Positions 13,346-45,297 are shown, counted from the stretch's first letter. The stretch is 45,310 bases of DNA from an uncultured Gammaproteobacteria bacterium (GCA_964608945.1 CAZSQB010000002.1:1262-46571), one strand, 5' to 3'. The notes: generated from the letters alone by a model not told the origin. Made by a program: numbers and translations.

Positions 13346-14173
13346 ATGCTTTCAGTCTTATATGTTTACTTTAATACGCCAGAAGAGTTATTAGACTCCA
13401 CAAACTCCATTAAAAGAGCAATCAATAGCTTTCCGTATGAGATAGTAATAGTAGACAATGCATCAACCAAAAAGCTTCCAAAACTGAATTCCCGTATTAG
13501 TGTTAAGTTAATTATAAACACCGATAATCAAGGATATGGCAAAGCAATGAATCAAGCGGCTAAAGCTGCAAAAGGAGATATTTTGCTTATTGCTAACACG
13601 GATACGATTTTTACTGAGAACTCAATCAAGCTGATTACTGAGAGGATAAAAAAGAATGAGAGAATCGGTGTAATTGGTCCACAAATGATTAGTAAGAGTG
13701 GCAGAGTACTTCAGAGCTATAATGGGCAGCCTTTTTTGCCGGATGCTCTTTTTGCGTTTTCTTTTATTAATAGCTTTTTCCCAAATAACAAGTTTTCCAA
13801 AAGATATTGGTTAGGTGACATGGATACAAAAAAAGAGAATGAAGTAGGCTTCGTTGGGGGAGCTTGTATGGTAATTAAAAAATCAGTATTTGAGAGAGCA
13901 GGCGGTTTCGATGAACGATTCTTTATGTACTTTGAAGAAGCTGATATCTGCTTCAGAATAAAAAAATTAGGATATAAAATTTTATACTTCCCCGATGCAA
14001 GAGTTATTCATTTAATAGGAAGGAGTACAAAAGATAACAAATGGATTAAGAAAACTTTTGAAGAAAGCAGGTTTAAATTCTTCCAAAAATATCACGGTAA
14101 TCTTATGGCAATAATGGGCGAGTGTATTTTAAGAATTATGAATTTTCCTATTAAGAAATATATAACAACATGA
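13346..14173 (+). CDS. Glycosyltransferase family 2 (soluble, rhamnosyltransferase-like)
   Basis: Motifs seen are VIVDNAS, YGKAMNQAAKAAKGDILLIANTDT and GACMVIKKSVFERAGGFDERFFMYFEEADICFR. Confidence 0.85.
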   Translation: MLSVLYVYFNTPEELLDSTNSIKRAINSFPYEIVIVDNASTKKLPKLNSRISVKLIINTDNQGYGKAMNQAAKAAKGDILLIANTDTIFTENSIKLITERIKKNERIGVIGPQMISKSGRVLQSYNGQPFLPDALFAFSFINSFFPNNKFSKRYWLGDMDTKKENEVGFVGGACMVIKKSVFERAGGFDERFFMYFEEADICFRIKKLGYKILYFPDARVIHLIGRSTKDNKWIKKTFEESRFKFFQKYHGNLMAIMGECILRIMNFPIKKYITT

Positions 14174-15252
14174 AGGTTTTGTTTTTGGCGAGGCTGTTTT
14201 ACCCTCACATTGGTGGGGTGGAGAGGCATGTGTATGAGGTGAGCCGCGAGTTGGTGGAGCGGGGGCACAAGGTGACGATAGTGACTGAGAAATTTGATGA
14301 TGATTCGGCAGAGCATCAGAAATCTGAAGGAATTGAAGTCTATAGGATTCCTGTTGGGAAAAATGTGTGGCTTAAAAAATTTACCATCTGGCAGTGGCTC
14401 ATCCGACACAAGCGACTGATGCGAAATGCGCATATCATCCACTGTCATGATGTGTTTTTCTGGTATTTGCCATTTCGCTTTTTTTACCTGACAAAAAAAG
14501 TATTTACCACATTTCACGGATACGAAGGCAATGAGGTTCCGAGTAAACGCTCAATTCTTATGCATAAAATCGCAGAGAAATTATCTCGAGGCAATATCTG
14601 TATCGGTGAGTTTTTGAGGAAGTGGTACAATACAAAACCAAGTTTTATTTCTTATGGAGGTATAATCCCGATTAATGAGAAGGCATCATATCAGAAAATA
14701 GAGCCAAGACAAAAAATATCTTTTGTATTTGTCGGGCGACTGGAAGAAGAGACAGGAATAATGGTCTATCTTCGCGCGATGCAGGTTGTCCAGATAAGAG
14801 GCTTTGCTGTCAACCTAATCGTTCTTGGAGATGGCAGCAAGAGAAAAGAGGCAGAGCACTTTTGTCAGAAAAACAAGCTGTCTGCTAAATTTACGGGGTT
14901 TGTCTCTGACATGGATAAATATATTTTGAGATCTCACTTTGTTTTTACCTCCCGTTATTTAGGAATTCTTGAAGCACTATCGCGAAAAAGATTTGTATTT
15001 GCTGTGTACAATAACACCGTTAAAAAAGATTACTTATTCATGACACCTTTTTCAGATTTTATTTCAATTACCAAGGACGATAATGCGCTTTCTGACGAAA
15101 TCGTCTTTCATATTCAGAACCAACACGTTGCTTTTGAAAAAACAAAAAAGGGTTTCTTGTGGACACAAAAACAAACATGGGAACGCCTCACAGATACCTA
15201 TTTGCAGCTTTGGTCGAGTAGGCGTAATCAATTTTCTCCTGTGTCATTCTGA
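14170..15252 (+). CDS. Glycosyltransferase family 4 (GT-B fold)
   Basis: The N-terminus MKVLFLARLFYPHIGGVERHVYEVSRELVERGHKV is typical of GT4. The start overlaps the upstream stop (ATGA). The last codons (PVSF*) run into a GTCATTCTGAG-type sequence. Confidence 0.8.
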   Translation: MKVLFLARLFYPHIGGVERHVYEVSRELVERGHKVTIVTEKFDDDSAEHQKSEGIEVYRIPVGKNVWLKKFTIWQWLIRHKRLMRNAHIIHCHDVFFWYLPFRFFYLTKKVFTTFHGYEGNEVPSKRSILMHKIAEKLSRGNICIGEFLRKWYNTKPSFISYGGIIPINEKASYQKIEPRQKISFVFVGRLEEETGIMVYLRAMQVVQIRGFAVNLIVLGDGSKRKEAEHFCQKNKLSAKFTGFVSDMDKYILRSHFVFTSRYLGILEALSRKRFVFAVYNNTVKKDYLFMTPFSDFISITKDDNALSDEIVFHIQNQHVAFEKTKKGFLWTQKQTWERLTDTYLQLWSSRRNQFSPVSF

Positions 15253-15362: not shown

Positions 15363-15755
15363 ATGGCGAAAAGAGAAAAGCCTAGACTATTACTACCTAA
15401 CTGTAACATAAAAACTCTACTTGATGGCCGCGGCGGAATTTTTACCTGGGTGGCAGAGGATGATATTAAAGAATTTAATCTTCTATACTTTAATACAGGA
15501 ATAATCCGCGGAAATCATTATCACCCAGAATTTGTTGAATATTTTTTGGTAGTCGAAGGCGCAGGTGCTATGGTTTATAAAGAAGAAAGAGGAACTCCTG
15601 AAAATGTGGTCCACATGAGCAAAGGAACATGCGTGCGGACTCCTGCCGGGGTAGCGCACGCTTTTCAAGCTATAACACCCGTTACTGCCATCGCTCTTTT
15701 AACAAAACCGTGGGATGACTGTAAGACACCAATAGTACGAATAGATATAATTTAG
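15363..15755 (+). CDS. Cupin-fold sugar-nucleotide isomerase/epimerase-like protein (WxcM/FdtA/CapF-C-like)
   Basis: 130 aa. The motif RGNHYHPEFVEYFLVVEGAG...PAGVAHAF is a cupin His-motif arrangement like those of NDP-ketosugar isomerases. The specific activity is not assignable. Confidence 0.55.
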   Translation: MAKREKPRLLLPNCNIKTLLDGRGGIFTWVAEDDIKEFNLLYFNTGIIRGNHYHPEFVEYFLVVEGAGAMVYKEERGTPENVVHMSKGTCVRTPAGVAHAFQAITPVTAIALLTKPWDDCKTPIVRIDII

Positions 15756-15773: not shown

Positions 15774-16481
15774 ATGAAACGCGTCGCATTAATTGGAGCA
15801 AGCGGACATGTGGGCAGTGCTCTTTTTAAAGAGTTATGTAAAGATACATCGCTCAGGGTAGAAGCAGTTATTCGTAAGAACTATTCTTTTTGGAAAAAAC
15901 GTAAGTTTGATATTGTTATTAACGCCGCGATGCCTTCCGCCCGTTTTTGGGCTGAAAATAACCCTCAGAAAGATTTTGTTGAAACGGTGAAAAAAACAGC
16001 AGATATTCTATACGATTGGAAATATAAAAAGATTATTCAGATAAGCACAATTTCTGCCCGAACCGAGCAAAATTTAATGTATGGAAGACATAAAGCCGCA
16101 GCAGAGACTCTCTGCAACTTTGACGAAAACTTAATAGTCAGATTAACCGCATTATATGCAGATACCCTCAACAAAGGCGCACTTATTGATATCATTAATG
16201 GGAATAAAGTGTATGTCAGTGAAAAAAGCAGGTATAGTTTTGCAAGTCTTGCATTTGTCTGTAAGTGGATCGCCCAGAATCTTGATAAAAAAGGTATCAG
16301 GGAAGTTGGAGCAAAGAATGCAATATCTTTAGAAGAAATTGTAAAACATTTGAAACTTTCTGTAGCATTTGAAGGGCGTATTGATATTCAAGAAGTGCAA
16401 AATCCCTCGCCTGGCTTTCCAGATGCAAAAGAAGTGTTATCCTATTTAGACAAGAAAATGAAAAAGAAATCGAGCGTATAA
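15774..16481 (+). CDS. Short NAD(P)-binding SDR-type sugar reductase/epimerase
   Basis: A Rossmann motif (ALIGASGHVGSAL) and a YxxxK motif (YGRHKAAAE) are present. Confidence 0.7.
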   Translation: MKRVALIGASGHVGSALFKELCKDTSLRVEAVIRKNYSFWKKRKFDIVINAAMPSARFWAENNPQKDFVETVKKTADILYDWKYKKIIQISTISARTEQNLMYGRHKAAAETLCNFDENLIVRLTALYADTLNKGALIDIINGNKVYVSEKSRYSFASLAFVCKWIAQNLDKKGIREVGAKNAISLEEIVKHLKLSVAFEGRIDIQEVQNPSPGFPDAKEVLSYLDKKMKKKSSV

Positions 16482-16484: not shown

Positions 16485-17741
16485 ATGAATACGGCAATGA
16501 AAATTGATGCATGCAGAATTTGTCACAATAGGTCATTGCTCCCATGCATTGATCTTGGACGCCAATATCTTTCCTCGGTTTTCCCAACAGATTTACAGTA
16601 TCGTAAAGATGCGAAGAAATATCCACTTGACTTAGTGTTGTGTAAAAAGAATAAAGATACCTGCGGGATTCTTCAATTGGCACATAATATAAATCTCGAA
16701 TCAATGTATGAGTTATATCCATTCTCAAGCTCTACAAATTCTTCAATGTCCGCAATTTTACATGATGTTGTAAATACTGCTCTCCCACATGTTGATCTAA
16801 AAGATGAAGATATTGTCCTTGATATAGGTGGTAACGATGGAACACTTCTTTCTTTTTTTCGAGAAAAAAAATTAGATCTCTTAGCTATTGATCCAGCAAA
16901 AAATATAAAACAAGTTTTTACATCTCATCGATATCAGTATATAAATAGTTTTTTTAATAAACAAATATATTATGCAACCACAGATAAAAAAGCAAAGTTA
17001 ATTTTTAGCATTGCAATGTTTTATCATTTATCTGACCCAATAACGTTTTCTAACGATGTGGAAGCATGTCTTAGTAATGATGGAGTATGGGTTATTCAAA
17101 TGGCCTATTTGCCGCTTATGCTTCAGACTAATATGTATGATAATATCGTGCATGAGCATGTGGGATATTATACAACGCATAATATGGAATGGATTATGAA
17201 TAATACTGGACTAGAAGTATTCGACGTCATGCTGAATGATGTCTATGGAGGGAGTTTTCGAATATTTGTGAAGAAAAAAAATAACAAGAGGCTCAAAAAA
17301 TCAAAGAGGCTTTTGAAAGTTTTGCAGGATGAAGCAAATTTTGGGGTTAACAAAGTTCAGACATATCATGACTTTATGACTCGTATTAAAAAAACAAAAA
17401 AGGACTTACTGACACTCATAAAACAGATCAAATCGCAAAAGAAAAACATTTGGATTTATGGTGCTTCTACCAAAGGCAATACAATTCTTCAGTATTGCGG
17501 GGTATCAAGCAAAGACATAGAAGCGGCTGCAGACTCAAATCCATTCAAGTTTGGTAAATACATCATTGGTGCAGATATCCCAATTAAAGATGAAATGACA
17601 ATGAGGAAAGCAAAACCGGATTATTTACTTGCACTCCCATATAGTTTTATTTCTAGCTTTATGAAGCGAGAAAAGGAACTTATTAAATCTGGTAGCAAAT
17701 TTATTATTCCTCTTCCTAATGTTACAATACTACCAACGTAA
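16485..17741 (+). CDS. NDP-hexose C-methyltransferase-like enzyme (Zn-ribbon Methyltransf_13 N-domain + SAM MTase + Methyltransf_14 C-domain), paralog 1
   Basis: CRICHN...CKKNKDTCGILQL provides a four-Cys ribbon. Motif I is VLDIGGNDGTLL, and IVHEHVGYY and a C-terminal Rossmann-like IWIYGASTKGNT are also present. The same architecture occurs at 29536-30816 and 32588-33835. Confidence 0.8.
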   Translation: MNTAMKIDACRICHNRSLLPCIDLGRQYLSSVFPTDLQYRKDAKKYPLDLVLCKKNKDTCGILQLAHNINLESMYELYPFSSSTNSSMSAILHDVVNTALPHVDLKDEDIVLDIGGNDGTLLSFFREKKLDLLAIDPAKNIKQVFTSHRYQYINSFFNKQIYYATTDKKAKLIFSIAMFYHLSDPITFSNDVEACLSNDGVWVIQMAYLPLMLQTNMYDNIVHEHVGYYTTHNMEWIMNNTGLEVFDVMLNDVYGGSFRIFVKKKNNKRLKKSKRLLKVLQDEANFGVNKVQTYHDFMTRIKKTKKDLLTLIKQIKSQKKNIWIYGASTKGNTILQYCGVSSKDIEAAADSNPFKFGKYIIGADIPIKDEMTMRKAKPDYLLALPYSFISSFMKREKELIKSGSKFIIPLPNVTILPT

Positions 17742-18457
17742 TGTGTCCAATGAATTCCGTCATAGAAGTAGTCATTCCAACATACAACGAGCGAAATGGA
17801 GTCGTTCAAGCAATTCTTAGTATTAAATCCGAAGTGCCGGATGCTGAAATAATTATTGTTGATGATAACTCTCCCGATAACACTGCCAATCTTGTGAAGG
17901 CTCGCTTTAGAAAAGACAAAAAAGTTCGGGTAGTCGTAAGAAAGAAAAAAGGGGGAAGGGGATCAGCTGTTATGCGAGGGTTCAGCGAGGGGTTAAAAAA
18001 TAAACATGCAAAATATTTTATTGAAATGGATGCGGATTTATGTCACAACCCGAAATATATAAAACAACTTGTAGATACGTGCAGAAAAGCAGATGTTGTG
18101 ATCGCATCCCGTTATTTACCTGGGTCAAAAGTAACTGGATGGAGCATGAAGCGAAAACTTATGAGCCATGCAATAAACACTTTGGCGAAACTGTTATTAC
18201 GTATTCCAATCAGTGACTATACAGACGGATTTCGATGTTACTCAAGAAATACAGTTAAGTTTCTTTGTTCTCAGAAATTTCGATCACGAGGATATATTGT
18301 CCTTTCAGAGGCGGCGTTTTTGTGCTTCAAAAAAGGTTTTGTGTTAAAAGAAGTCCCAATCAATATTCACTTTAAATCCGTATCAAAATCAAATTTAAAC
18401 GCAAAAGAAGTAAAAGAAGCTCTCCTCACATTACTCAGACTACGTTTTTTTAAGTAA
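17741..18457 (+). CDS. Polyprenyl-phosphate sugar synthase-like GT2 (Dpm1/ArnC/GtrB-like)
   Basis: Motifs seen are VVIPTYNERNGV, IIIVDDNSPDNT, GRGSAVMRGF and EMDADLCHNP. The start overlaps the upstream stop (TAATG). Confidence 0.85.
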   Translation: MCPMNSVIEVVIPTYNERNGVVQAILSIKSEVPDAEIIIVDDNSPDNTANLVKARFRKDKKVRVVVRKKKGGRGSAVMRGFSEGLKNKHAKYFIEMDADLCHNPKYIKQLVDTCRKADVVIASRYLPGSKVTGWSMKRKLMSHAINTLAKLLLRIPISDYTDGFRCYSRNTVKFLCSQKFRSRGYIVLSEAAFLCFKKGFVLKEVPINIHFKSVSKSNLNAKEVKEALLTLLRLRFFK

Positions 18458-20284
18458 TTTACTTCTGCTTGAAAACCTCGTTAAGAAATGAAACAAGAGA
18501 TACCCTAACAGGCTCAAAAATCCAAGCATGCTTATTTTTTTTAAAACTCTTAAAACTAGAACATCTTCGTATATTACTTGTATATAATGAATCCCTTTAG
18601 GAAGTTGAAAGCGTATTACGCCTTCTGCATCATGATCTATGTTAATTAGTTTATTGTTGTCAAAAACTTGCCAACCTGGAAAAAACAAGGTGTTTTCTCT
18701 CAGTACTGTTGGCGTCTTTGCAAAGAGAATATATGTGTGTATTGTAGAACTTCGCTGTAGTTCTTTTATTTCTGCAAAGTTTTTTATAGTCTCTAGATGA
18801 GCTGGGGGGAGCTTTGCAAACCATGGATCTTTTTTATTTTTCCATTTAGAGTTAGCGTACCAATGTCCTTCTGCTTCTGACGTACTTTTCCATAGATTAT
18901 GAATAAGGTTTTGGTCACTAATTTCAGGAATAACTCGGCGATGTCCCCAATTTAATATTGTCGAAAAAATCGTAAGTCCAATGAGTAACAAAAGAAAGAT
19001 CTGCTTCTTCAATACATAGAAACTCAAATACCCTCCTAAAATTGAAGAGGCAAAAACAGTAAGAAGAAGCAGGCGATGTGATCCCCCAGTAGAACTGAGA
19101 AACGGCAGCATGCCCCATACGAATTTTGAATACTCTGTAATAAAAAAAATGAGTGAGATAAAGGCAAACAGCCAAAAGGTAATCTGGTATTTATGTTTGT
19201 TGGAAATTTTTTTGCGCAGCAACAATATGAGGAGGATGATGACAACAAGAATATGTGCATATCCTATGAGTAACGAGATCTCGCCACGTGACCCTTGGAA
19301 AAGCAATCCTATTCTCCATGGAGAGAAAAGGAGCATCCAGATTTGAGGAAAAGAACTGAAGCCACTGTATTGACTAACAATAGTATATTGTGCGAGAAAA
19401 AACGGCGTTAACCATATATAGAGAGTAGGGATGCTTCCAGAAATGAAAGTGGAAAGAGCAAGAAGAAGTACCTGTTTTTTTTTCAAGCTGAATGAGAGAA
19501 AGACTGCATAACAAGACAAGAGAACGATTGCAAAAAACGCAAGCACAACATGGCTCATGATAAGAAGCGCTACAGATAGAGAGGTCAGGATAAACCATTT
19601 GCCAGTTTTTTCCTCCCAAAGTTTTTGTAAAAAGAAAAATACAAGCGGGAGCAGAGTAAAAATCATGATTTCGCCGATGACAATTTTAAAATGCAAATCT
19701 ATCAAGTGGTATGGCGCAAATTGATAAAAAATTGCAGTTACAAAAGCAGCAAGGTTATTTTTAAGAAGTCTTCTTGCACAAAAATACATAAAAATTCCTG
19801 AGAGGAGAAAGTTTGTCGCCAAGAATAATTTCATGCTAGTGATGAATGAAAATCCCAGGAAATGAAAGAAGCTTATGACATAGTAAGGGAGCGGATAATT
19901 GAAAATAAAAAGTGGATATCCATATGTCGCGTTTAAATCTCCTGCCCAGGATGGAATAATAATTCCTTCTTTTAGCGAGTCGTAATATGCCATTGCCCGA
20001 TAAATATGCACATTAAAGTCGCCGCTTTCATATGTTCCAGGACGTAAAATGCTGAGAGTAGGTAGGATGGAAATTATGATAAGGAGGATAAAAAGCGGTA
20101 TTTGTTTTTTGGGAAAGATATATCGGTATGCCATGCTTCCTAAAAATACAGTCATTACTCCGATGATATTGACGACAACCATACGGTATGGCTCAAGCAT
20201 GCTGCTATAATAGACGAAATCCATATTCTTAAGCAAATATGAAGGTGTCATTTGTAACAACTGTTTTGAATGAGGAAGGGACAA
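18440..20284 (-). CDS. Large polytopic membrane protein, GT-C-like (resembles the PTPS-related membrane family)
   Basis: 614 aa with more than 10 hydrophobic segments. The first loop reads GTYESGDFNVHIYRAMAYYDSLKEGIIIPSWAGDLNATYGYPLFIFNYPLPYY, and a soluble C-terminal domain follows. The start is ambiguous among ATGs at 20284, 20251 and 20224. Confidence 0.6.
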   Translation of the reverse strand: MSLPHSKQLLQMTPSYLLKNMDFVYYSSMLEPYRMVVVNIIGVMTVFLGSMAYRYIFPKKQIPLFILLIIISILPTLSILRPGTYESGDFNVHIYRAMAYYDSLKEGIIIPSWAGDLNATYGYPLFIFNYPLPYYVISFFHFLGFSFITSMKLFLATNFLLSGIFMYFCARRLLKNNLAAFVTAIFYQFAPYHLIDLHFKIVIGEIMIFTLLPLVFFFLQKLWEEKTGKWFILTSLSVALLIMSHVVLAFFAIVLLSCYAVFLSFSLKKKQVLLLALSTFISGSIPTLYIWLTPFFLAQYTIVSQYSGFSSFPQIWMLLFSPWRIGLLFQGSRGEISLLIGYAHILVVIILLILLLRKKISNKHKYQITFWLFAFISLIFFITEYSKFVWGMLPFLSSTGGSHRLLLLTVFASSILGGYLSFYVLKKQIFLLLLIGLTIFSTILNWGHRRVIPEISDQNLIHNLWKSTSEAEGHWYANSKWKNKKDPWFAKLPPAHLETIKNFAEIKELQRSSTIHTYILFAKTPTVLRENTLFFPGWQVFDNNKLINIDHDAEGVIRFQLPKGIHYIQVIYEDVLVLRVLKKISMLGFLSLLGYLLFHFLTRFSSRSKLLKKT

Positions 20285-21222
20285 TTATGGCTTTTCTTGA
20301 GTCTGTTGTTAAACAAACGAAAAAACCAGATGAGGTGATAGTCGTTGACGGAGGGAGTACCGACAAGACGTTGTCGGTAATGTCAAATTTCCCCACTTCG
20401 TCCCGCTCAGCGGGACTTCGAGGGGCAAGCAAAATCAAAAGTTCCAGTTTAAAGTTTAAAGTTTTGCAAAAGAGCGGGAACAGATCGGTTGGGAGAAATG
20501 AGGGAATTCAGCAAGCGAGTGGAGATATTATTTTGGTTTCTGATGCTGGGTGTACGTTGGATAGGAATTGGGTAAAGCGGATATCTGAACCATTTGTAGA
20601 TCCGAGTGTTGATGTTGTTGCAGGATACTATGCAGCAAAACCAAAAACTGTTTTTGAAGAATGTCTGGTGCCGTTCGTATTGGTTATGCCGGACAAGCTT
20701 AATCCTGCTACTTTCCTTCCTGCAACGCGCTCAATGGCTTTGCGCAAACGCATCTGGAAGAAAGCGGGAGGATTTGATGAGGTATTGCCACATAATGAGG
20801 ATTATGTCTTTGCCAAAGAATTGAAGTCAGTGCACGCTCGGATAGTTTTTAAGCAAGATGCAATAGTGTACTGGCAGCCAAGAAATAATCTCATACAAGC
20901 ATTTATCATGTTTTTTCGTTTTGCACTGGGAGACGCAGAAGCGAGTATTGTTCGATCTAAGGTAATTATATTACTCTTACGCTACGTCATTGGATCTATA
21001 CTATTGCTATTTGTGTTGTCGAATATATTAAGCGCTTATCTATTTTTTCTCCTGTTGTTAGGATATGTATTCTGGGCAATTTTAAAAAATTATCATTATG
21101 TTCGAGACAACAGAGCGTTTCTTATATTACCCCTGTTGCAGATTACTGCAGATATTGCTGTCATTTGCGGGACAATGTATGGTTTTATTAAGTCGTTATG
21201 GGATATACAAAAGCAACATTAA
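20239..21222 (+). CDS. Glycosyltransferase family 2 with C-terminal TM segments and an in-frame hairpin insertion
   Basis: Motifs seen are VSFVTTVLNEE, VIVVDGGSTDKT, GRNEGIQQASGDIILVSDAGC and HNEDYVF. The extra segment FPTSSRSAGLRGASKI is encoded by the GC hairpin region at 20391-20425. Confidence 0.8.
   Translation: MKVSFVTTVLNEEGTIMAFLESVVKQTKKPDEVIVVDGGSTDKTLSVMSNFPTSSRSAGLRGASKIKSSSLKFKVLQKSGNRSVGRNEGIQQASGDIILVSDAGCTLDRNWVKRISEPFVDPSVDVVAGYYAAKPKTVFEECLVPFVLVMPDKLNPATFLPATRSMALRKRIWKKAGGFDEVLPHNEDYVFAKELKSVHARIVFKQDAIVYWQPRNNLIQAFIMFFRFALGDAEASIVRSKVIILLLRYVIGSILLLFVLSNILSAYLFFLLLLGYVFWAILKNYHYVRDNRAFLILPLLQITADIAVICGTMYGFIKSLWDIQKQH
20400..20416. repeat. GC-rich hairpin GTCCCGC-TCA-GCGGGAC inside a GT2 coding sequence
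   Basis: This is a perfect 7-bp stem with the same stem sequence as 9725-9745. It is flanked by CCCC...GAGGGG. Confidence 0.6.
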
Positions 21223-36830: not shown

Positions 36831-36870
36831 GTCAGTCTTGTATAATACAGCCATTATAACAAACGAAGTT

Positions 36871-38406: not shown

Positions 38407-38529
38407 CTCGTATCAAATGGATTAGGTTTTGCAATAAAAGATAATGGAGAAAGACTGCTGAATCTGATAAAATGCTTTATTGCGTCAAGTCTAATGAAGT
38501 AGTGGATTTATAAATTTATCTTTCTGCAC

Positions 38530-39864
38530 TTGAAATCGGTCCTTCTGAAGCAATCTGACGCTTTAATAGATGTTATATCATTGACCACTGTGAACATCCA
38601 AAAAGAGCTGTTAACAAAAATAAAAACTAAAAAGGCAAATATAGCCGTTATTGGACTCGGATATGTTGGTCTCCCTCTTGCAGTTCTTCTTGCAAAACAG
38701 GGTTTCACGATAAAAGGATATATAAAAACTGCAGAAAAACTGCGGGGTCTACAAAGCGGTATAAGCGGCATATCAGGTTATAACGATGATCTAAAAAAAA
38801 CTTTACGTTCTGGAAGTTTCTCTGCACACAGTATCGCTGATAGTAATCTTGCAGACAATGATATTTATATCATTTGCGTTCCCACTCCACTTAACAAGAA
38901 AAAAAAGCCAGACTTGACAAGCGTACATCAGGTTGCGAAAAGACTTTTTGAAACTGATCTTAAAGGAAAGCTGATTATTAACGAATCGACTGTTGCGCCG
39001 TTTACAACGCGAAGGATTTTTGTCTCTTCTCGAATGAATTATTTCCTCGTTTGTTCTCCTGAAAGAATCGATCCGGGAACAAGATTTGAGACTTCTGAAA
39101 ATATTCCAAAGGTTATCGGAGGAATTGACTCTGAAAGTCTCGAGCTTGGGATTGCACTCTATAGCCAGATTATAAAAAAGAAGCTAGTCATTGTGAGAAA
39201 TATAGAGGTAGCAGAAATGTCTAAAATGCTTGAGAATACATACAGAGCAATTAACATCTCGTTGATAAACGAGTTTGCAAGGTTAGCAGACGCGATTCAT
39301 ATTGATATCATAGACGTCATTGCTGCTGCAAAAACAAAATGGAGCTTTCAAGCGCATTATCCAGGTATCGGAGTTGGAGGGCATTGTATTCCTGTTGATC
39401 CTCATTACGTTCTTGAGCTTGCTCAAAAAAAAAGAGTTAAGATGGATGTCATTACTGAAGCCTTATGGGAAAACGAAAAAATGCCCGAGTATATAGTAGA
39501 CAAAGTTGTTAGGCACTACAAAAAAGGAATGGATGTTTTAGTATACGGACTCACATACAAAAAAGATGTTCCAGATCTTCGCGAAAGTCCTGTTCTTGCA
39601 TTTTGTAAACTACTAAAAAGAAAAAGAATTGATTTCACGGTATACGATCCTTTGCTCCCTCTAAAAACCATTCGAAAATTAGGATTTTCTCCTGTCCATC
39701 TTAAAAAAACAGACATTTTCGTAGTTGGGACAGACCATAAACAGCTTACAAAAGATTATAAATTAGCTGTTGGAAGCAAAACTATCATTATTGACGGAAG
39801 AAATTTTTTTCTAAAGAAAGTCGGGAAAAAGGTAATCGGTGTCGGCAGATCACTTGCCGAATGA
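38530..39864 (+). CDS. Nucleotide-sugar dehydrogenase (UDP-N-acetyl-hexosamine dehydrogenase-like), copy 2
   Basis: Motifs are IAVIGLGYVGLPLAVLLAKQGF, CSPERIDPG, the catalytic Cys motif GGHCIPVDP and VYGLTYKKDVPDLRES. The maximal ORF starts at a TTG, so the true start is uncertain. Confidence 0.85.
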   Translation: MKSVLLKQSDALIDVISLTTVNIQKELLTKIKTKKANIAVIGLGYVGLPLAVLLAKQGFTIKGYIKTAEKLRGLQSGISGISGYNDDLKKTLRSGSFSAHSIADSNLADNDIYIICVPTPLNKKKKPDLTSVHQVAKRLFETDLKGKLIINESTVAPFTTRRIFVSSRMNYFLVCSPERIDPGTRFETSENIPKVIGGIDSESLELGIALYSQIIKKKLVIVRNIEVAEMSKMLENTYRAINISLINEFARLADAIHIDIIDVIAAAKTKWSFQAHYPGIGVGGHCIPVDPHYVLELAQKKRVKMDVITEALWENEKMPEYIVDKVVRHYKKGMDVLVYGLTYKKDVPDLRESPVLAFCKLLKRKRIDFTVYDPLLPLKTIRKLGFSPVHLKKTDIFVVGTDHKQLTKDYKLAVGSKTIIIDGRNFFLKKVGKKVIGVGRSLAE

Positions 39865-40563
39865 TGACTGTATAATTGTTTTGAATACCGATAAGCCGTG
39901 TTTGATCGTCTTGAGATTTGATTTTCCGGTTTGACGCCTTGTGCATGTCACCGTTACATTTTTTAGTTTATATTTTTTCTTTGCTGCCTTTATAACAAGT
40001 TCTGCTTCATATCCAAAATCATTAGTCTTAGGGTTTATGTCAAGAACGACCGTTCTTTTAAATGCTTTGAGCCCGGTCATTACGTCGACAACTTTTCTTC
40101 CAGAAGCGATCGATGCTGAGAAGGAAAGGAAAAAATTCCCATACATTTTGATGAATGATGTAAAGCCGGAATTCAGAATGGAAAACAAATCGTATCGCAC
40201 CCCAATTACCATATCATACCCATCCTTCAAGGGTTCGATCAATTTTGGAATTTCTGAGGCCCTCAGCTGTTTGTCAGCATCAATTTGTACGACGTAGTCA
40301 CCTGTAGCTTCATTGATTCCCGTCCGAAAGGCAGCTCCTTTCCCCTGGTTTTTTTTGTGAATAATTATTTTATGTGCACCGCCTTTTTTTGCTGTAATTG
40401 AAGTACCGTCTTTTGATCCATCGTCGACTACAATAATCTCAAGATTATAGACATTTGATAATGCTTGAACATCTTTAATAACAGAATAGATTGTTTTTGC
40501 CTCGTTGTACGCTGGAATGATTACTGATACTTTTTCCTTTTTCTGGATATCTCTTTTGGCCAT
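39850..40563 (-). CDS. ArnC/Dpm1-like GT2, module copy 2
   Basis: Motifs are VSVIIPAYNEAKTI, IIVVDDGSKDGT, GKGAAFRTGINEATGDYVVQIDAD, EIPKLIEPL and GYEAELVIKAAKKKYK. Its 3' end overlaps the dehydrogenase 3' end by 15 nt (convergent). Confidence 0.85.
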   Translation of the reverse strand: MAKRDIQKKEKVSVIIPAYNEAKTIYSVIKDVQALSNVYNLEIIVVDDGSKDGTSITAKKGGAHKIIIHKKNQGKGAAFRTGINEATGDYVVQIDADKQLRASEIPKLIEPLKDGYDMVIGVRYDLFSILNSGFTSFIKMYGNFFLSFSASIASGRKVVDVMTGLKAFKRTVVLDINPKTNDFGYEAELVIKAAKKKYKLKNVTVTCTRRQTGKSNLKTIKHGLSVFKTIIQSSFGK

Positions 40564-40596
40564 TTCTGTATAATATCAGAATACCTATAATTGTAA

Positions 40597-41079
40597 ATGT
40601 TTTTGATGAAGAAAAAGGGATTGTTTTATTATCTGCTGCTGATATTATTTTTAATATGGATTGGGGTCTCTCTTGCTCGCACATTTTATAATCTTTCAAA
40701 ACTCGGCACCGAGGAGCGGAAGTGGTATTTTTTGACGGATGAAGAAAAGCGGGAAATGCAGTTTGGAGATAAACACCGCTTTTTCCGCTTTGTACAGGCT
40801 CATACAAAAAAAGGATCAAACATTTTGTTTTATACGCGTGATGGTATGGCTTATTATTGGGGGAGGTATTACTTGTATCCGACGACAATCATTTGGGGGG
40901 AAAACCAATATACTATTTGGGGAAACAATATCAATAGGAACTACAACTATGTGATGATTTATCCTCTTAACCGCGGGAAACGGTTAAAAGATGTGTTTTT
41001 CTTTGAGAATATTTCGTATAAAAAACTTGTAGAGTATAAAACAGGAAGCAATGTGAAAGGAGTTATTTACAAAAAATGA
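40597..41079 (+). CDS. Single-pass membrane protein with an aromatic-rich extracytoplasmic domain (hypothetical)
   Basis: An N-terminal TM segment (LFYYLLLILFLIWIGVSLA) is followed by a 125-aa W/Y-rich domain. The stop overlaps the downstream start (ATGA). TATAAT lies at 40586-40591, 5 nt before the ATG. Confidence 0.5.
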   Translation: MFLMKKKGLFYYLLLILFLIWIGVSLARTFYNLSKLGTEERKWYFLTDEEKREMQFGDKHRFFRFVQAHTKKGSNILFYTRDGMAYYWGRYYLYPTTIIWGENQYTIWGNNINRNYNYVMIYPLNRGKRLKDVFFFENISYKKLVEYKTGSNVKGVIYKK

Positions 41080-42410
41080 GCTTCATTCTAATTTTCCTAA
41101 CAATCCTTGTTGTTATCTGGGCCGGGTTTTTGGTAATTGAGTTGTTCGGTTTGATGAAAGAATCGTCTCTTTTTGAAAAACTATCTTTCTCGTGGGGGCT
41201 GGGATTCGGGCTTATTGGTCTTCAACTATTTTTTTATGATCTTTTGAATATGGAGTGGAGTCGACTGAGTATTCTTTTACCATGGATAATTCTTTTTATT
41301 CCGTATATTCGAAAAAACAAACCGTATTTTCCCAAAATGATTCTTCGATTACAACCCAGAGAAAATTTTTTTGCCATACTTATTCTTCTGCTTGTTTTAT
41401 TTGTCGGATTTGAATCTATTCTACGTCCAGTTCAAGCATGGGATGCTTGGGATAATTGGCTGTTCAGGTCAAAAGTGTTTTATTACCACAACACTATTGA
41501 CCAGTATTATTTTCATTATGCCCAAGATGAATATCCTCTTATTATCCCTCTAGTTGGCACCTTTGGGTATATCATGATGGGTCAAATCAATGATAGGCTC
41601 ATCTTGCTCCTTTTTTTTATGTTTTACCTTTGTCTTGGAGGAATTTTTTTCGGAACCGTAAGAAGGCTTTCTAGCACACAAAACGCCCTTTTGTTTACGT
41701 TTCTCTTATTGTCTTTGCAAAATCTCATCCGCCACGGTGGCCGTTTTGAAGCAGGTCAAGCAGACCTCGCGCTTTCTTATTATATTTTCTCAGGAACAAT
41801 TCTTCTTGCATCCTTTATAAAAAAGAAAAGTAAAAAAACAGCAATCCTCTTAAGTGTATTTTTAGGAATTGCAGGACAGATAAAGTATGATGGGATGGCT
41901 TTTATAGTAATAGTTATGCTTGTATTTTTGTTATACGTCGTCAAATGGAAACAATATAGATATGCTTATTTACTATTACCATCTTTTTTGCTACTTATAC
42001 CGTGGAACTTATATAAATTGCTTAATCAGCTTCCAGAAAATTTTCTCTTTCGTTCAGGGATAAACATTCATATAGAGAGGTTTGTGATAGTAATACTTTC
42101 CATGTCAAAAGAATTCTTCAATATCAAAAACTGGAACTTGCTATGGATTGTTTTTTTTGTCAGTTTAATATTCTTCTGGAATAGAGGCAAAAAGGCTAAA
42201 CTTTTTTTAGTTGTTTTATCTCTACAATGGCTATCATACTTTCTTGTTTTTTTAATGACCCCCACCAATCCAGTAACTCATATTGCAAATATTATCGATA
42301 AACTCTATATACATCTTGCACCAATTGCTACTCTTATTATTGCTTTAGTCACTTCCGATATGATGCAGAGATCAAAAGTAAAAATAATTCGAAAATTACA
42401 TAATGATTGA
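41076..42410 (+). CDS. Polytopic membrane protein, putative GT-C-like glycosyltransferase lacking a large soluble domain
   Basis: 444 aa with about 11 hydrophobic segments. An acidic/aromatic loop motif reads RPVQAWDAWDNWLFRSKVFY. Confidence 0.55.
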   Translation: MSFILIFLTILVVIWAGFLVIELFGLMKESSLFEKLSFSWGLGFGLIGLQLFFYDLLNMEWSRLSILLPWIILFIPYIRKNKPYFPKMILRLQPRENFFAILILLLVLFVGFESILRPVQAWDAWDNWLFRSKVFYYHNTIDQYYFHYAQDEYPLIIPLVGTFGYIMMGQINDRLILLLFFMFYLCLGGIFFGTVRRLSSTQNALLFTFLLLSLQNLIRHGGRFEAGQADLALSYYIFSGTILLASFIKKKSKKTAILLSVFLGIAGQIKYDGMAFIVIVMLVFLLYVVKWKQYRYAYLLLPSFLLLIPWNLYKLLNQLPENFLFRSGINIHIERFVIVILSMSKEFFNIKNWNLLWIVFFVSLIFFWNRGKKAKLFLVVLSLQWLSYFLVFLMTPTNPVTHIANIIDKLYIHLAPIATLIIALVTSDMMQRSKVKIIRKLHND

Positions 42411-42672
42411 GTATCGGGGATTTGAAACGCTTGAGGTATTGGAAGGGGCTGATAGGTATAATGGTTGGATTGCTGAGAAAATATCGTATTTTAACTTCCT
42501 TGGGCTGTTGAGTTGGATGGTTCGTGATAAGTTTGAAAGAAAAAACTTTCATCTTAAACCATACCAAATAGCGGCGTTTGATATGGTTGTTCCAATATTA
42601 AAAAGAGTAGAGAAGTATATCAGAATACCACTTGGAATATCCCTTGTTGCCATTGCACGAAAGAAAGGGTAG
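42403..42672 (+). pseudogene. Core-deleted remnant of a class I SAM methyltransferase (intact 89-aa ORF)
   Basis: The N-terminal part (FETLEVLEGADRYNGWIAEKI) and the C-terminal part (LGLLSWMVRDKFERKNFHLKPYQIAAFDMVVPILKRVEKYIRIPLGISLVAIARK) match the flanks of methyltransferases common in such glycan loci. The GxGxG SAM-binding core between them is missing. Confidence 0.45.
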
Positions 42673-42673
42673 C

Positions 42674-44551
42674 ATGATTTTTTCAGACCCCATTTTTTCA
42701 TTTCTTCATAGGCTTTACGCTGTTTTTCAGGGAAGGATTTCTTACTTAAGTGAAGATTTTACCGGCATCTCCTTAAACATCAAAACAGTTGGTATTTTCA
42801 TTTTACAAGCACTGATTGGTTTTGCTTGCATCGCAATCATATTCTTAATAGGCAATAGAATTAGACAGAGATTTTTTCTTGAAGAAGGAGATAAGAATGT
42901 ATTTCTTTCTATTGCTTTCGGATATATTACTGTTGGAATAGGTATTGCATTGCTTGGAATATATTCATTGTTAACACCAATCTATCTTGTTCTTTATATA
43001 GTAGTTGTTTGTGTAATTGCGTTACACAAACTGAATATCAGTTCTACAAAAATATTTGTTGCAGACTTTTTTAGAAGTCTCCTACCGATTAAGAAAAACA
43101 AAGTCATTATCGCTTTCATATTGCTTTTTTTAATTGTTGGATTTCTACGGCTATTACTTCCAGAAACTGGAGTAGATGCGCTGTGGTATCACACTGATTA
43201 TCCAAAGCAATATTTACAAAGGGGAACAATGATGGTTCCAGTAAAGGGGAATTTATATCTTGCTGCAACACCACAACTTGGTCAGATGCCGTACGTTATA
43301 TTTACCTTTCTTGGATTAGTCGACGCTGCACGAATTTTTCATTTCTTATTTTTGATTTTAGTTCTAGTATTGTTATACCACATCTCTAAAGATCTAACTT
43401 CCCCAAACGCTGGCTTAGCGACTGCACTACTTTTCATTACCTCGCCAATTATTTTACGTCATGCTCCAACAGCATATGTTGATTTTCAGTGGTTGTTTTT
43501 TTGGTTGCTTTCGCTTTGGATTCTATTAAAAGCGAAGATCTTACGTCTGAAAATAATAATACTAACTGGTGTATTGTTTGGTGGGTTATTATCGATGAAA
43601 CTTCTGGCTATTGTCTTCTTTCCTGTTTTCCTCATCTATATTCTATTAAAAAGTAAAGATGGATCATTTTCTGCCTTGAAAAACTTGTTGTTGTTTCTGT
43701 TTACGGCGGGAGCCGTTGTTTCCATTTGGTATATAAGAGCGTTTGTTATGACCGGTAATCCTTTTTACCCGCAATTTGCTTCTATGCAAAATGAATTCAG
43801 TAGCGTTTTAGCTTTAAATGACTTTCTATCATTAGCTTATTGGCAATACAAGGTACAGGGTGTTTTTAATATCTTAGATTTTAGTTTTTTATCCGCAGTT
43901 GCATTAGCTGGATTATTTTTTCTTCAAAAAAATCAACTCATGGTGCTTATGCGAGCAAATTTATTCATATTTTTTTGTTTGGTTGCTTTATTATTTTTCT
44001 TTTTACCAACACCATTTTTTATTGGGAGACATTTAATCTATCTATATAGTTTAATTATCCTTTTATTTGCATTGCCATTGGCAAATATCTACGAAAGATT
44101 TCTTCTTGCGAGAAGAGGGATACAATTAGCACTTTTATTGTTATTTAGCTACTATTTTATTAGTACGCTCGCGTTACTCCCATACGGTTTTGGATGGGCT
44201 GAGACAAATAAGTACTTAACTCGTACACTTGAGAATGATAACTCAAGTTATTACGATTATGATCGAAAATTCTCAAAATATATTGGCAAAAATGAAACAG
44301 TGGCAACATATAAAGTACAAGGGCTCTACTATGCAAGTTTCGAACCTAAAGACGTTGCATTACTGCTAGAAGAAAAGGAAAACATTTATACACAACTTGA
44401 GAAGTATAATATTAGTAAGCTTCTTATAAAAGGTGGGGACACACAGTGGTTTTGTAGCAATACAAAGTATCAAGCATGTGATGTAAAAAACTTCGTCCTT
44501 CTAGCAAAGCACGAGCCGGCAAAGCTTTATTTATATATAATAAATGAATGA
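42674..44551 (+). CDS. Polytopic membrane glycosyltransferase, GT-C fold (ArnT/GT39-like)
   Basis: About 625 aa. A loop motif (PETGVDALWYHTDYPKQYLQRG) follows the early TM segments, with more than 12 hydrophobic segments and a soluble C-terminal domain. ATG 42674 is preferred over TTG 42632. Confidence 0.7.
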   Translation: MIFSDPIFSFLHRLYAVFQGRISYLSEDFTGISLNIKTVGIFILQALIGFACIAIIFLIGNRIRQRFFLEEGDKNVFLSIAFGYITVGIGIALLGIYSLLTPIYLVLYIVVVCVIALHKLNISSTKIFVADFFRSLLPIKKNKVIIAFILLFLIVGFLRLLLPETGVDALWYHTDYPKQYLQRGTMMVPVKGNLYLAATPQLGQMPYVIFTFLGLVDAARIFHFLFLILVLVLLYHISKDLTSPNAGLATALLFITSPIILRHAPTAYVDFQWLFFWLLSLWILLKAKILRLKIIILTGVLFGGLLSMKLLAIVFFPVFLIYILLKSKDGSFSALKNLLLFLFTAGAVVSIWYIRAFVMTGNPFYPQFASMQNEFSSVLALNDFLSLAYWQYKVQGVFNILDFSFLSAVALAGLFFLQKNQLMVLMRANLFIFFCLVALLFFFLPTPFFIGRHLIYLYSLIILLFALPLANIYERFLLARRGIQLALLLLFSYYFISTLALLPYGFGWAETNKYLTRTLENDNSSYYDYDRKFSKYIGKNETVATYKVQGLYYASFEPKDVALLLEEKENIYTQLEKYNISKLLIKGGDTQWFCSNTKYQACDVKNFVLLAKHEPAKLYLYIINE

Positions 44552-45297
44552 CAATTAGTGCTGTCGTTTTAGCAAAAAATGAGGAAAGAAATATCGAGCG
44601 GTGTATTGCGTCTCTATTGTGGTGTGATGAAATAGTAGTGATTGATGACAATTCCAAAGATAAAACAGTAAGTAAGGCGAAGAAATATAAGGTAAAACTA
44701 TATCAGCGCAGCTTGCATAATAATTTTGCACAACAGCGTAATTTTGGCCTTGAGAATGCGTCATCTGAATGGATATTCTTTGTCGATGCGGACGAGGTTG
44801 TCACAGATAGATTACAAAAAGAAATAGTCTCCATAATTCATTCAGAGAATACGTTGAATGCTTACTCTTTTAAGAGAAAAGATACTATGTGGGGAAGAGA
44901 ACTTAGTTACGGAGAATCGGGAAATATTCGCCTTATTCGTCTTGGGAAAAAGGGGAGTGGGATGTGGAAAGGAAATGTCCACGAGAGGTGGAACGTAAAG
45001 GGTCCTGTTGGCGCGCTCACAGAATCTCTCCGTCATTATCCTCACCAAACGGTTTATGAGTTTGTTTCGGAGATAAATTATTACTCAACTATTCGGGCAA
45101 AGGAGTTGTATAAGAAAAATGTATCCGCACATGGAATAGATCTAGTTATCTATCCTAAAGCAAAGTTTATATACAACTATTTTCTAAGACTAGGGTGTAT
45201 GGATGGCATCGAAGGGTTTCTGCTTGCTGTAATGATGAGTTTTCATTCATTTCTCGTTCGGGCAAAATTATGGCTCCTATGGCAAGAGAAAAAATAA
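44548..45297 (+). CDS. Glycosyltransferase family 2 (small, WaaE/KdtX-like)
   Basis: Motifs are ISAVVLAKNEERNIERCIASLLWCDEIVVIDDNSKDKT and QRNFGLENASSEWIFFVDADE. The start overlaps the upstream stop (ATGA). Confidence 0.85.
   Translation: MTISAVVLAKNEERNIERCIASLLWCDEIVVIDDNSKDKTVSKAKKYKVKLYQRSLHNNFAQQRNFGLENASSEWIFFVDADEVVTDRLQKEIVSIIHSENTLNAYSFKRKDTMWGRELSYGESGNIRLIRLGKKGSGMWKGNVHERWNVKGPVGALTESLRHYPHQTVYEFVSEINYYSTIRAKELYKKNVSAHGIDLVIYPKAKFIYNYFLRLGCMDGIEGFLLAVMMSFHSFLVRAKLWLLWQEKK

Follow-up and report, generated by a model that had tools for sequence, protein, structure and literature searches.

A GT-C-rich locus and its putative role in envelope-glycan assembly in a Levybacteria-like member of the Candidate Phyla Radiation

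Why would a bacterium with a genome of probably about 1 Mb devote roughly 39 kb to a continuous array of glycosyltransferase (GT) and associated genes, and what could such an array build? The question is raised by the 45,310-nucleotide stretch CAZSQB010000002.1:1262-46571 (GCA_964608945.1), referred to here as the window, in which a sequence-only reading had pointed to a cluster of polytopic GT-C-like proteins and putative polyprenyl-phosphate-sugar synthases at positions 13346-45297. Open reading frame (ORF) calling identified 27 closely packed genes in this interval, including seven GT-C genes, four family 2 GT (GT2) genes of the Dpm1/ArnC/PpgS-like kind whose products lack transmembrane (TM) helices, three other GT2 genes, two GT4 genes, one Wzx-type flippase gene and nine sugar-tailoring genes. 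The genes listed in the sequence-only reading were all recovered as ORFs in place and its GT-C count was correct. An eighth GT-C gene lies outside this interval at 478 and a ninth starts at 45270; together with the continuation of the cluster in relatives (related loci or contigs, designated by L and a number), the whole locus holds at least 9-10 GT-C genes. With eight to nine GT-C genes in 45 kb, a chance accumulation is excluded, and the gene order recurs in about 20 related genomes.

The analysis supports polyprenyl-phosphate-sugar/GT-C glycosylation at an unusual scale in a genome of the Candidate Phyla Radiation (CPR; Patescibacteria). The preferred reading, to which a probability of about one half is given, is a hybrid envelope-glycan assembly line of Candidatus Levybacteria, in which a lipid-linked glycan handled by Wzx and Wzy_C proteins would be elongated and branched outside the membrane by GT-Cs drawing on polyprenyl-phosphate sugars. 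A literature search returned nothing on GT-C, YfhO or mannosyltransferase in Patescibacteria; its coverage was incomplete, and absence from the literature is thus not established.

GT-C proteins, polyprenyl-phosphate-sugar synthases and tailoring enzymes

The polytopic proteins of the window are encoded by the following genes, designated by their start positions (those of families A1 and A2 also by family):

478-2088 (+): outlying GT-C of the PMT_2 type, 536 aa, about 10 TM segments, PMT_2 35.5 bits, motif LDEMGY in the first external loop (EL1)
18440-20284 (-): GT-C of the PTPS_related/PMT_2 type, about 580-614 aa, about 10 TM segments, PTPS_related 40.6 bits
23635-25137 (+): GT-C of the PMT_2 type, 500 aa, PMT_2 32.1 bits
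25118-27961 (+): YfhO-like GT-C, 947 aa, about 14 TM segments, YfhO 34.6 bits
27937-29532 (+): GT-C of family A1, 531 aa, assigned by AlphaFold (AF2) and Foldseek
36871-38406 (+): GT-C, PMT_2/TMEM260-like, 511 aa from 36871 (long ORF from 36790), PMT_2 36.2 bits
41076-42410 (+): GT-C of family A2, 444 aa, no Pfam match of its own even at E<=10
42632-44551 (+): GT-C of the PMT_2 type, 625-639 aa, about 12 TM segments (alternative start 42674), PMT_2 36.1 bits
45270-45310 (+): 5' end of the ninth GT-C gene at the window edge, continued in Logan contig L001

The gathering thresholds of Pfam PMT_2 (PF13231) and YfhO (PF09586) are 26.1 and 28.5 bits, respectively. The PMT_2 threshold is passed by the 478, 23635, 36790 and 42632 proteins (32-36 bits) and narrowly missed by the 18440 protein (25.4 bits). 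The YfhO match of the 25118 protein is confined to model positions 772-835 of 835, the C-terminal 60 or so, and YfhO is matched by 14 of its 17 orthologs (best E 1.8e-13). Within family A2, 11 of 69 members match PMT_2, and D123 of the motif AWDxW is invariant. The ninth gene is extended by 347 codons in L001, with 8 TM segments and the motif HHPPL, and its ortholog L029:14605-16197, 63% identical, matches PMT_2. A hydropathy scan predicts 6-14 TM segments in all eight GT-Cs of the window, each of which carries an acidic motif in the loop that follows an early TM helix, as judged from the inferred topology. Invariant acidic residues are found in A1 (D41, with E42 in at least 90%), A2 (D123) and the YfhO-like family (D33, D56 and E62).

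The A1 protein has no Pfam match, even at E<=10, and was the GT-C chosen for structural comparison, the other seven being assigned through Pfam families. Its AF2 model (predicted local distance difference test score (pLDDT) 91.6, predicted TM-score (pTM) 0.91) has about 13 long helices and a small C-terminal alpha/beta domain. In a Foldseek search of the PDB, the top 40 matches of this model were all GT-C proteins, including AglB, AftA, STT3, PglB, DPY19, ALG9, Pmt4 and Emb, with E-values down to 1.2e-6 (AglB) and TMq of 0.44-0.54. The family, for which 65 homologs were gathered, comprises 6547 representatives of 50% clusters (E<=1e-3), has an invariant (D/E)EG loop motif, which is IDEGQ in the first outer loop of A1, and is apparently uncharacterised. 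The polytopic proteins are GT-C-type enzymes, as had been proposed from sequence; a transporter identity is ruled out by Pfam, the family scans and the AF2/Foldseek comparison.

Recent tandem duplication was considered as the source of this accumulation of genes and rejected: the paralogs share 24-43% identity or can hardly be detected from one another, and separate orthologs exist for each. Within a genome the GT-C paralogs barely detect one another (E about 1e-4), whereas orthologs between genomes score hundreds of bits, which argues for ancient paralogs with distinct, non-redundant linkages, as would be expected of an assembly line. The GT-C families could not be linked to one another by sequence (hhalign of A1 against A2, 5.7% probability), and family profiles of A1, A2 and the YfhO-like protein returned nothing usable from PDB sequences. 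From family membership and from linkage to the Dpm-like GT2 genes, the GT-C donor would be a polyprenyl-phosphate-linked sugar.

The genes that would supply these donors, and the other glycosyltransferase, flippase and accessory genes, are:

17741-18457 (+): Dpm1/ArnC-like GT2 A, putative polyprenyl-phosphate-sugar synthase, 238 aa, no TM segment
31815-32591 (-): Dpm1/ArnC-like GT2 B, 258 aa, no TM segment, Pfam Glycos_transf_2, inside a sugar-tailoring operon
36123-36830 (-): Dpm1/AglJ-like GT2 C, likely 235 aa, divergent from the 36871 GT-C gene
39850-40563 (-): Dpm1/AglJ-like GT2 D, 237 aa, a 43% identical paralog of C
13346-14173 (+): GT2a, cytoplasmic GT2 (rhamnosyltransferase/MftF-like), Pfam Glycos_transf_2
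14170-15252 (+): GT4a (GT-B fold, cytoplasmic), Pfam Glyco_transf_4/Glycos_transf_1, next to lepB in L010, L019 and L025
20239-21222 (+): GT2tm, membrane GT2 (GT-A domain and three C-terminal TM helices), first gene of the conserved core
21198-22430 (+): Wzx/MOP-family flippase, Polysacc_synt_3 212.7 bits over positions 1-293 of 293
22467-23600 (+): GT4b, conserved core, Glycos_transf_1 91 bits and synteny
44548-45297 (+): GT2z, cytoplasmic GT2 kept close to the right-hand end of the locus, Glycos_transf_2 79 bits and synteny
40597-41079 (+): s160, 160 aa, one N-terminal TM anchor and an outside domain, no Pfam match

The four short GT2 proteins (about 235-258 aa) had been described as synthases of the Dpm1/ArnC kind, and this description agrees with PDB searches for two of them and NCBIfam matches for all four. 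When A and D were searched against the PDB, the best match was the Pyrococcus dolichyl-phosphate-mannose (Dol-P-Man) synthase 5mlz (E 9e-25 over nearly the full length for A, 6e-20 for D), followed by ArnC and the GtrB-like sll0501. B and C were classed from NCBIfam, in which all four proteins match the AglJ, haloarchaeal Dol-P-hexose transferase, mycobacterial PpgS, ArnC and PgfS models. The matches of A to PgfS, ArnC, PpgS and AglJ (about 58 bits), of B to PgfS, Dol-P-hexose transferase and ArnC, of C to AglJ (134.7 bits) and Dol-P-hexose transferase (95.6 bits) and of D to AglJ (132.8), PpgS (86.4) and ArnC (73.3 bits) are all below cut-off; none of the four reaches an NCBIfam equivalog cut-off, the highest scores being 134.7 against 325 for AglJ, 86.4 against 370 for PpgS and 73.3 against 529 for ArnC. 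DxD-type motifs are present in all four proteins. TM segments are predicted in none of them, and the C-terminal TM helices of ArnC, GtrB, CsbB and the archaeal Dol-P-Man synthase are missing; such helices are present in the Dpm-like GT2 of one relative (L024:9015-10025). On these matches, the four proteins appear to belong to the polyprenyl-phosphate-sugar-synthase group as a TM-less subtype, which we take to be that of PpgS and human DPM1, and to be orthologs of no named enzyme. The long ORF of GT2 C (36123-37010) overlaps the 36790-38406 ORF by 220 bp; since GT2 C orthologs are 229-245 aa, the true starts of this divergent pair are probably 36830 and 36871. These starts leave about 40 bp of intergenic DNA for two divergent promoters.

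The assignments of the flippase, the two GT4 and the three other GT2 proteins were confirmed by Pfam and NCBIfam. The best NCBIfam matches of the flippase are the colanic-acid-type MOP flippase PRK10459 (199.8 bits, below the equivalog cut-off of 273) and TuaB. Sequence matches of GT2tm to the PDB are generic. Its AF2 model (pLDDT 91.7) is matched in Foldseek by Chlorella-virus hyaluronan synthase (TMq 0.71) and by PcManGT of Pyrobaculum calidifontis (Pcal_0472; TMq 0.62, TMt 0.59). PcManGT, which is reportedly Dol-P-dependent and located within a multi-GT cluster (Gandini et al. 2020), likewise combines a GT-A domain with three TM helices in about 330 aa; however, its identity with GT2tm is about 16%, and hyaluronan synthase matches as well or better. 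An ArnC/GtrB-type synthase identity for GT2tm is not supported by these fold matches. GT2tm probably uses a lipid-linked acceptor at the membrane, and its product is probably what Wzx flips. In 12 loci the gene for the small protein s160 invariably lies directly before that of the A2 GT-C and overlaps it; s160 is a candidate accessory subunit or a candidate split-off periplasmic domain, and no homology to GacJ or GtrA was detectable.

Nine further genes of the cluster are assigned to sugar tailoring:

15363-15755 (+): small cupin, candidate sugar epimerase/isomerase, Cupin_2
15774-16481 (+): short NAD(P)-binding Rossmann protein, weakly similar to short-chain dehydrogenases/reductases (SDR), 235 aa, sub-threshold Pfam matches only
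16485-17741 (+): sugar C-methyltransferase paralog 1, Methyltransf_13+23+14
29536-30816 (-): sugar C-methyltransferase paralog 2, Methyltransf_13+23+14
30813-31763 (-): SDR, NDP-sugar 4,6-dehydratase/epimerase-like, Epimerase/GDP_Man_Dehyd
32588-33835 (-): sugar C-methyltransferase paralog 3, Methyltransf_13+23+14
33912-34787 (+): RmlD-like NDP-4-keto-sugar reductase, RmlD_sub_bind 182 bits, NCBIfam rmlD 172.5 bits against a cut-off of 224
34839-36116 (+): NDP-sugar 6-dehydrogenase 1 (uronic-acid branch), NCBIfam NDP-sugDHase 321 bits, above cut-off
38530-39864 (+): NDP-sugar 6-dehydrogenase 2, NCBIfam NDP-sugDHase 351 bits

The 30813 SDR matches the LegB/dTDP-glucose dehydratase models at about 140 bits, under their cut-offs, and an AglM-like match was also obtained for the NDP-sugar dehydrogenase. 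The three C-methyltransferases are old paralogs (29-36% identical), and because three such paralogs are present in the locus, C-methyl-branched sugars would be implied in a CPR surface glycan. No nucleotidylyltransferase is present in the cluster, and the description of these genes as a full set of sugar-nucleotide tailoring genes was therefore overstated. Tailoring operons end in a Dpm-like GT2, the order SDR, C-methyltransferase, GT2 being kept in relatives. In some relatives a formyltransferase gene and then an aminotransferase gene stand directly before that of the Dpm-like GT2 (e.g., L018:15974-17880 (-), also L016, L026 and L028), an arrangement absent from the window. The best PDB matches of the N-formyltransferase are GDP-perosamine formyltransferase and ArnA, and those of the aminotransferase are perosamine synthetase and ArnB. 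These relatives thus appear to carry an Arn-like formamido-sugar branch, in which the sugar would be tailored, loaded on polyprenyl phosphate and handed to a GT-C.

Conservation, variability and genomic context

When species-representative genomes were scanned with the A1 family, 21 loci were recovered, essentially all from Levybacteria, and their genes were assigned by ORF calling and phmmer classification. A core of GT2tm, Wzx, GT4b, the 23635 GT-C, the YfhO-like protein and A1 is kept in at least 12 genomes. A module in which a Dpm-like GT2 gene is divergent from the 36790-type GT-C gene and followed by s160 and A2 is found in about 10 genomes, and the divergent pair itself in about 10 of 15 loci. 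Orthologs of the 18440 GT-C are present in L006, L015, L018, L019, L024 and L025, and the left border beside parB-lepB recurs in L010, L019 and L025.

Several of these genes are fused in relatives. GT2tm is joined to Wzx in L006 (1720-3897, 725 aa) and to a GT-C of the 45270-type family in L025 (4097-6562, 821 aa), and a methyltransferase is joined to a Dpm-like GT2 in L015 (540 aa). The 23635 GT-C, a standalone protein in the window, carries an N-terminal GT2a domain in most relatives, giving about 745 aa in total (L004:4901-7174, L006:5018-7252 and L010:4966-7188, which match GT2a at 231-300 bits); in the window and in L030, the 92%-identical relative, the two genes are split and lie 9 kb apart. 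The fusions support a coupling of synthase, flippase and GT-C.

The idea of synthase/GT-C pairing thus draws support from conserved adjacency and from fusions, although the four concatenated one-to-one pairs envisaged earlier are not what the locus contains. Four Dpm-like GT2 genes face eight GT-C genes in the window and at least ten in the whole locus. The pair formed by the 39850 GT2 with s160/A2 arose by local duplication of the 36123 GT2 (43% identity), the GT2 fused to GT-C in most relatives is of the 13346 type and not Dpm-like, and PcManGT and hyaluronan synthase, not ArnC/GtrB, are what the membrane GT2 at 20239 resembles. The relation between synthases and GT-Cs is thus one-to-many, as it is in mycobacteria or the eukaryotic endoplasmic reticulum (ER).

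Conservation is uneven along the locus. Between the window and L030, identity is 90-96% for Wzx, GT4b, A1, the SDR and the 42632 GT-C, and 33-49% for RmlD, the Dpm-like GT2 at 31815, the 36790 GT-C, s160 and A2. GC content is 0.33-0.36 in the variable parts compared with 0.41-0.44 in housekeeping DNA. Such mosaic identity and low GC are typical of a surface-glycan locus that diversifies around a fixed core, and the pattern would indicate module replacement by recombination. Gene gain and loss were also observed when L030 and L029, the latter 81% identical, were compared with window positions 29536-44551 (the second C-methyltransferase; the duplication of UDP-glucose dehydrogenase (UGDH) and Dpm-like GT2).

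The window cuts the locus, and the boundary drawn earlier at 45297 is not its end, as the ninth GT-C gene begins at 45270 and the cluster continues beyond. Exact matching of the last gene recovered only contigs of 1.2-1.9 kb, and the right end of the locus was therefore read from L029. In L029 the 44548-type GT2 gene is followed by three PMT_2 genes (530, 481 and 538 aa), a Wzy_C gene (400 aa) and a gene for an adhesin-like Big/Ca-tandemer protein. A Wzy_C protein (PF04932, polymerase/ligase type) closes the locus in L007 and L029, as identified by Pfam, with homologs in L020 and L027. The Wzy_C protein has no match among PDB sequences, and that of L007 has a weak NCBIfam match to RfaL. Wzy_C is not encoded in the window, which stops before the position of this gene in relatives. 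The sequence-only reading had reported neither a Wzy polymerase nor a WaaL-type ligase, which is true inside the window; because Wzy_C closes the locus beyond that point in four relatives, the absence is probably an effect of the window edge. The reported lack of a priming phosphoglycosyltransferase (PGT) was borne out over a wider region: proteins of the WecA/MraY type (PF00953) and of the WbaP type (PF02397) are absent both from the window and from the Pfam gene tables (±10 kb) of six relatives (L003, L004, L006, L007, L029 and L030), a search that was not genome-wide, and no PGT is among the families listed (top 25) for 43 unassigned ORFs. Wzz and the export genes wza/wzc were not seen in any locus table.

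The Wzy_C gene is in every case followed by one for an adhesin-like protein with a TM anchor and Big/Glucodextran_B/Ca-tandemer domains (L029:20649-21332 (-), L007:17625-18350 (-), L020:16603-17319 (-) and L027:6129-6845 (-)). The weak NCBIfam match of this protein to PamR, a pilus protein of CPR bacteria, scores 25 bits where the cut-off is 300; it is possibly the glycan acceptor, or possibly a neighbour. Three independent assemblies (the window contig, GCA_964457405.1 and GCA_964425075.1) end within about 1 kb past the 44548-type GT2, a pattern that suggests either a repeat immediately after that gene or hypervariability between strains.

The left part of the window is a housekeeping block with the following features, and the window is chromosomal DNA of a CPR bacterium:

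3130-6204: ileS
6201-7280: ftsW/rodA
7303-7695: rplU
8115-8987: parB
8984-9553 (-): lepB
9625-9700: tRNA-Val

Those homologs of the cluster proteins that are named belong almost exclusively to metagenome-assembled genomes (MAGs) of Candidatus Levybacteria/Levyibacteriota, Microgenomates and 'Parcubacteria', and the host is a Levybacteria-like CPR bacterium. Because the largest related contigs carrying the locus, CAYRKM010000001.1, PLZJ01000002.1 and WOOD18-1 scaffold_5, are 0.84, 0.92 and 1.14 Mb, the host genome is probably about 1 Mb (range 0.8-1.1 Mb), of which the locus would occupy about 3.5-4.5%. The CPR host and the large coding share suspected from sequence were thereby upheld. The third-party annotation (TPA) MAG records L010, L013, L014, L019, L021-L023, L025, L026 and L028 combine a Levybacteria-type locus and parB-lepB context with the title 'uncultured Gammaproteobacteria', a label that looks wrong. 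The housekeeping block is separated from the glycan cluster by a stretch with reading frames at 10073-11119 (-), 11673-12356 (+) and 12858-13202 (-); two proteins of this stretch (348 and 227 aa) are without any Pfam match, and a small TM protein with an Excalibur calcium-binding domain is encoded there as well. At the other side of the block, upstream of ileS, the 478 GT-C gene overlaps a gene for an S-adenosylmethionine (SAM)-dependent methyltransferase, and the housekeeping genes separate this pair (478-2777) from the main cluster. GT-C and methyltransferase pairs recur within related loci too.

2070-2777 (+): SAM-dependent methyltransferase paired with the outlying GT-C, Pfam Methyltransf_11/23/31

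Assembly-line reading and its alternatives

From the families or folds of the parts, the conservation of their linkage, their fusions and the mosaic variability of the locus, the following substrates, order of steps and acceptor may be proposed. In the cytoplasm, NDP-sugars would be tailored by the two 6-dehydrogenases, the 4,6-dehydratase-like SDR, the RmlD-like reductase, the cupin and the three C-methyltransferases. The four TM-less Dpm1/ArnC/PpgS-like GT2 enzymes would attach three or four distinct tailored sugars to polyprenyl phosphate, and GT4a, GT4b, GT2a, GT2z and GT2tm would assemble a lipid-linked oligosaccharide. The Wzx-type flippase, which some relatives carry joined to GT2tm, would export lipid-linked material. 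On the outer face, at least nine old, non-redundant GT-C paralogs would each add a specific residue from polyprenyl-phosphate sugars, and the Wzy_C protein presumably encoded beyond the window may polymerise the glycan or ligate it to a final acceptor, for which wall polymers, lipids and surface proteins are candidates.

Several observations weigh against this assembly line. No priming PGT was found in the tables examined, and the lipid-linked-oligosaccharide branch therefore stands without its first enzyme. Wzy_C is placed in this genome by inference from relatives, and a single flippase is visible for four to five different lipid-linked sugars, with no GtrA or ArnE/F-type protein found. GT2tm is at least as similar to the processive hyaluronan synthase as to PcManGT and might itself make and export a polymer. 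All GT2 and SDR matches are under equivalog cut-offs, and donor sugars are not assignable from them.

The sequence-only reading had favoured direct decoration, in which independent synthase/GT-C modules add single sugars to existing acceptors (for instance S-layer proteins, pilins, adhesins or polymers bound to peptidoglycan) without any lipid-linked oligosaccharide, so that a PGT, Wzy and ligase are unneeded. The absence of a PGT from the inspected gene tables, the conserved divergent pairs of Dpm-like GT2 and GT-C and the adhesin-like protein at the locus end in relatives are consistent with this model, and some members of the PMT_2, TMEM260-like and YfhO families monoglycosylate proteins or teichoic acid. 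However, Wzx, two GT4 and three non-Dpm GT2 conserved in the core, as well as Wzy_C in relatives, would be unneeded by such a system, and the ratio of synthases to GT-Cs is about 1:2.5 instead of 1:1. The former components make a lipid-linked oligosaccharide branch likely, and the earlier wording of decoration rather than a classical pathway is therefore too strong; decoration as the whole function of the locus is unlikely, though it is the strongest of the alternatives. Somewhat less probable again is an ordinary Wzx/Wzy locus of the O-antigen, capsule or teichuronic-acid type, with its PGT elsewhere in the genome and with GT-C and Dpm-like genes adding side chains in the manner of Gtr or GacI-L. 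Such loci share with this one a Wzx, GT4 and GT2 genes for cytoplasmic enzymes and mosaic low-GC variable regions, and with four of its relatives a terminal Wzy_C. They differ in that here no PGT, Wzz or Wza/Wzc is seen in any locus table and the GT-Cs dominate, at least 9-10 of them outnumbering five cytoplasmic GTs and three lying in the invariant core. The GT-Cs are moreover old, individually conserved paralogs and not phage-like add-ons, and the core is conserved over an order-level clade instead of being serotype-specific.

The absence of a PGT would also be accounted for by protein glycosylation of the archaeal or eukaryotic style, in which an AglJ-like GT2 primes polyprenyl monophosphate, soluble GT2/GT4 enzymes and the PcManGT-like GT2tm extend the chain, an AglR-like Wzx flips it, A1 acts as a compact oligosaccharyltransferase (OST) and other GT-Cs add final sugars as AglS does. 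The Agl pathway of Haloferax volcanii (AglJ, AglD, AglR, AglS, AglB, AglM and AglP) needs no PGT, and its cluster includes an NDP-sugar dehydrogenase and a methyltransferase. The present locus resembles it in its dehydrogenases (with the AglM-like match), methyltransferases, Wzx-like flippase and archaeal PcManGT match of GT2tm; GT2 C and D have AglJ as their best NCBIfam match (133-135 bits), followed by the haloarchaeal Dol-P-hexose transferase, and AglB, STT3 and PglB are among the best PDB structural matches of A1, AglB being the best, with a weak match of its C-terminal domain to the globular domain of AglB. Against this stand the AglJ scores, far under the cut-off of 325, the bacterial host and the far larger number of GT-Cs. 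In addition, AftA, which is not an OST, matches A1 nearly as well, with TM-scores of about 0.5, and an A1 profile found no OST among PDB sequences at E<=10. The family alignment lacks the WWDYG motif at the TM/periplasmic junction of A1, and the conserved WxVDG at 493-497 lies about 90 residues past this junction, far from the last TM helix. On the predicted model, A1 would resemble OSTs in fold only, the sequence hallmarks of an OST being absent, and this pathway is accordingly improbable. Just as doubtful is the broader proposal that the main envelope glycan of Levybacteria is made without a PGT, by Dpm/AglJ-like GT2 priming, a Wzx coupled to the last cytoplasmic GT2, at least ten GT-Cs and en-bloc OST-like transfer by A1 onto surface proteins; if true, a bacterial phylum would be using a glycosylation logic of the archaeal/eukaryotic kind.

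Comparison with known systems and significance

The closest analogues of the hybrid assembly line include the synthesis of mycobacterial and corynebacterial arabinogalactan (AG) and lipomannan/lipoarabinomannan (LM/LAM), in which many extracytoplasmic GT-Cs (Emb, Aft, Mpt, PimE) draw on few polyprenyl-phosphate-sugar donors (Ppm1 products and decaprenylphosphoryl-arabinose (DPA); PpgS/Rv3779), primer steps are carried out by cytoplasmic GT4/GT2 enzymes and some clustering of GT-C genes is seen. Like the short GT2 proteins, PpgS is Dpm-like, TM-less and similar in size, and its model matches GT2 D at 86 bits over nearly the full length; the structural matches of A1 include AftA and Emb. However, no equivalog-level matches to these enzymes were obtained, and the present system lies in a CPR genome of about 1 Mb, with nearly all genes in one locus of about 39 kb, a Wzx in that locus and a Wzy_C in the locus of relatives. 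Its sugars evidently differ as well (uronic, C-methylated and, in relatives, formamido sugars).

Gram-positive three-component systems (CsbB/GtcA/YfhO, GacI-J-K-L and Lactococcus Csd with CflA) likewise combine a GT2 synthase, a flippase (Wzx-like in GacK and CflA) and an outside GT-C. A probable YfhO-family member is found in the core of the present locus, and the position of s160 beside a GT-C recalls GacJ. The known modules add one side-chain sugar and are usually scattered or single, whereas here at least nine GT-Cs are concatenated and vertically conserved, and the synthases are without the C-terminal TM helices of CsbB and GtrB. The Arn pathway (ArnA/B/C/T and ArnE/F) offers a similar order of events, with a UDP-sugar dehydrogenase, SDR, aminotransferase, formyltransferase and GT2 loading polyprenyl phosphate ahead of a GT-C; ArnC is among the top matches of the short GT2 proteins, and ArnB and ArnA are matched by the enzymes of relatives. 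The window instead has C-methyltransferases in place of the aminotransferase and formyltransferase, no ArnE/F and scores under cut-offs, and to our knowledge the CPR cell has no lipid A. The parts of the locus are of known kinds, while its scale, lineage and product are undescribed, and the equivalog threshold of no named system is reached.

CPR bacteria are mostly uncultured, epibiotic organisms with tiny genomes, whose surface mediates attachment to the host and whose surface chemistry is hardly known. The surface glycan indicated by this locus is a major and complex one that varies between strains; uronic and C-methyl-branched sugars are probable constituents, as are formamido sugars in relatives. 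The fusions found in relatives predict which synthase, flippase and GT-C cooperate, and the large A1 family and the candidate subunit s160 provide handles on this system. The mosaic variable region suits serotype-like typing of Levybacteria in metagenomes. More broadly, the locus bears on how widely polyprenyl-monophosphate-based glycan assembly, as found in mycobacteria, archaea and the ER, reaches in bacteria.

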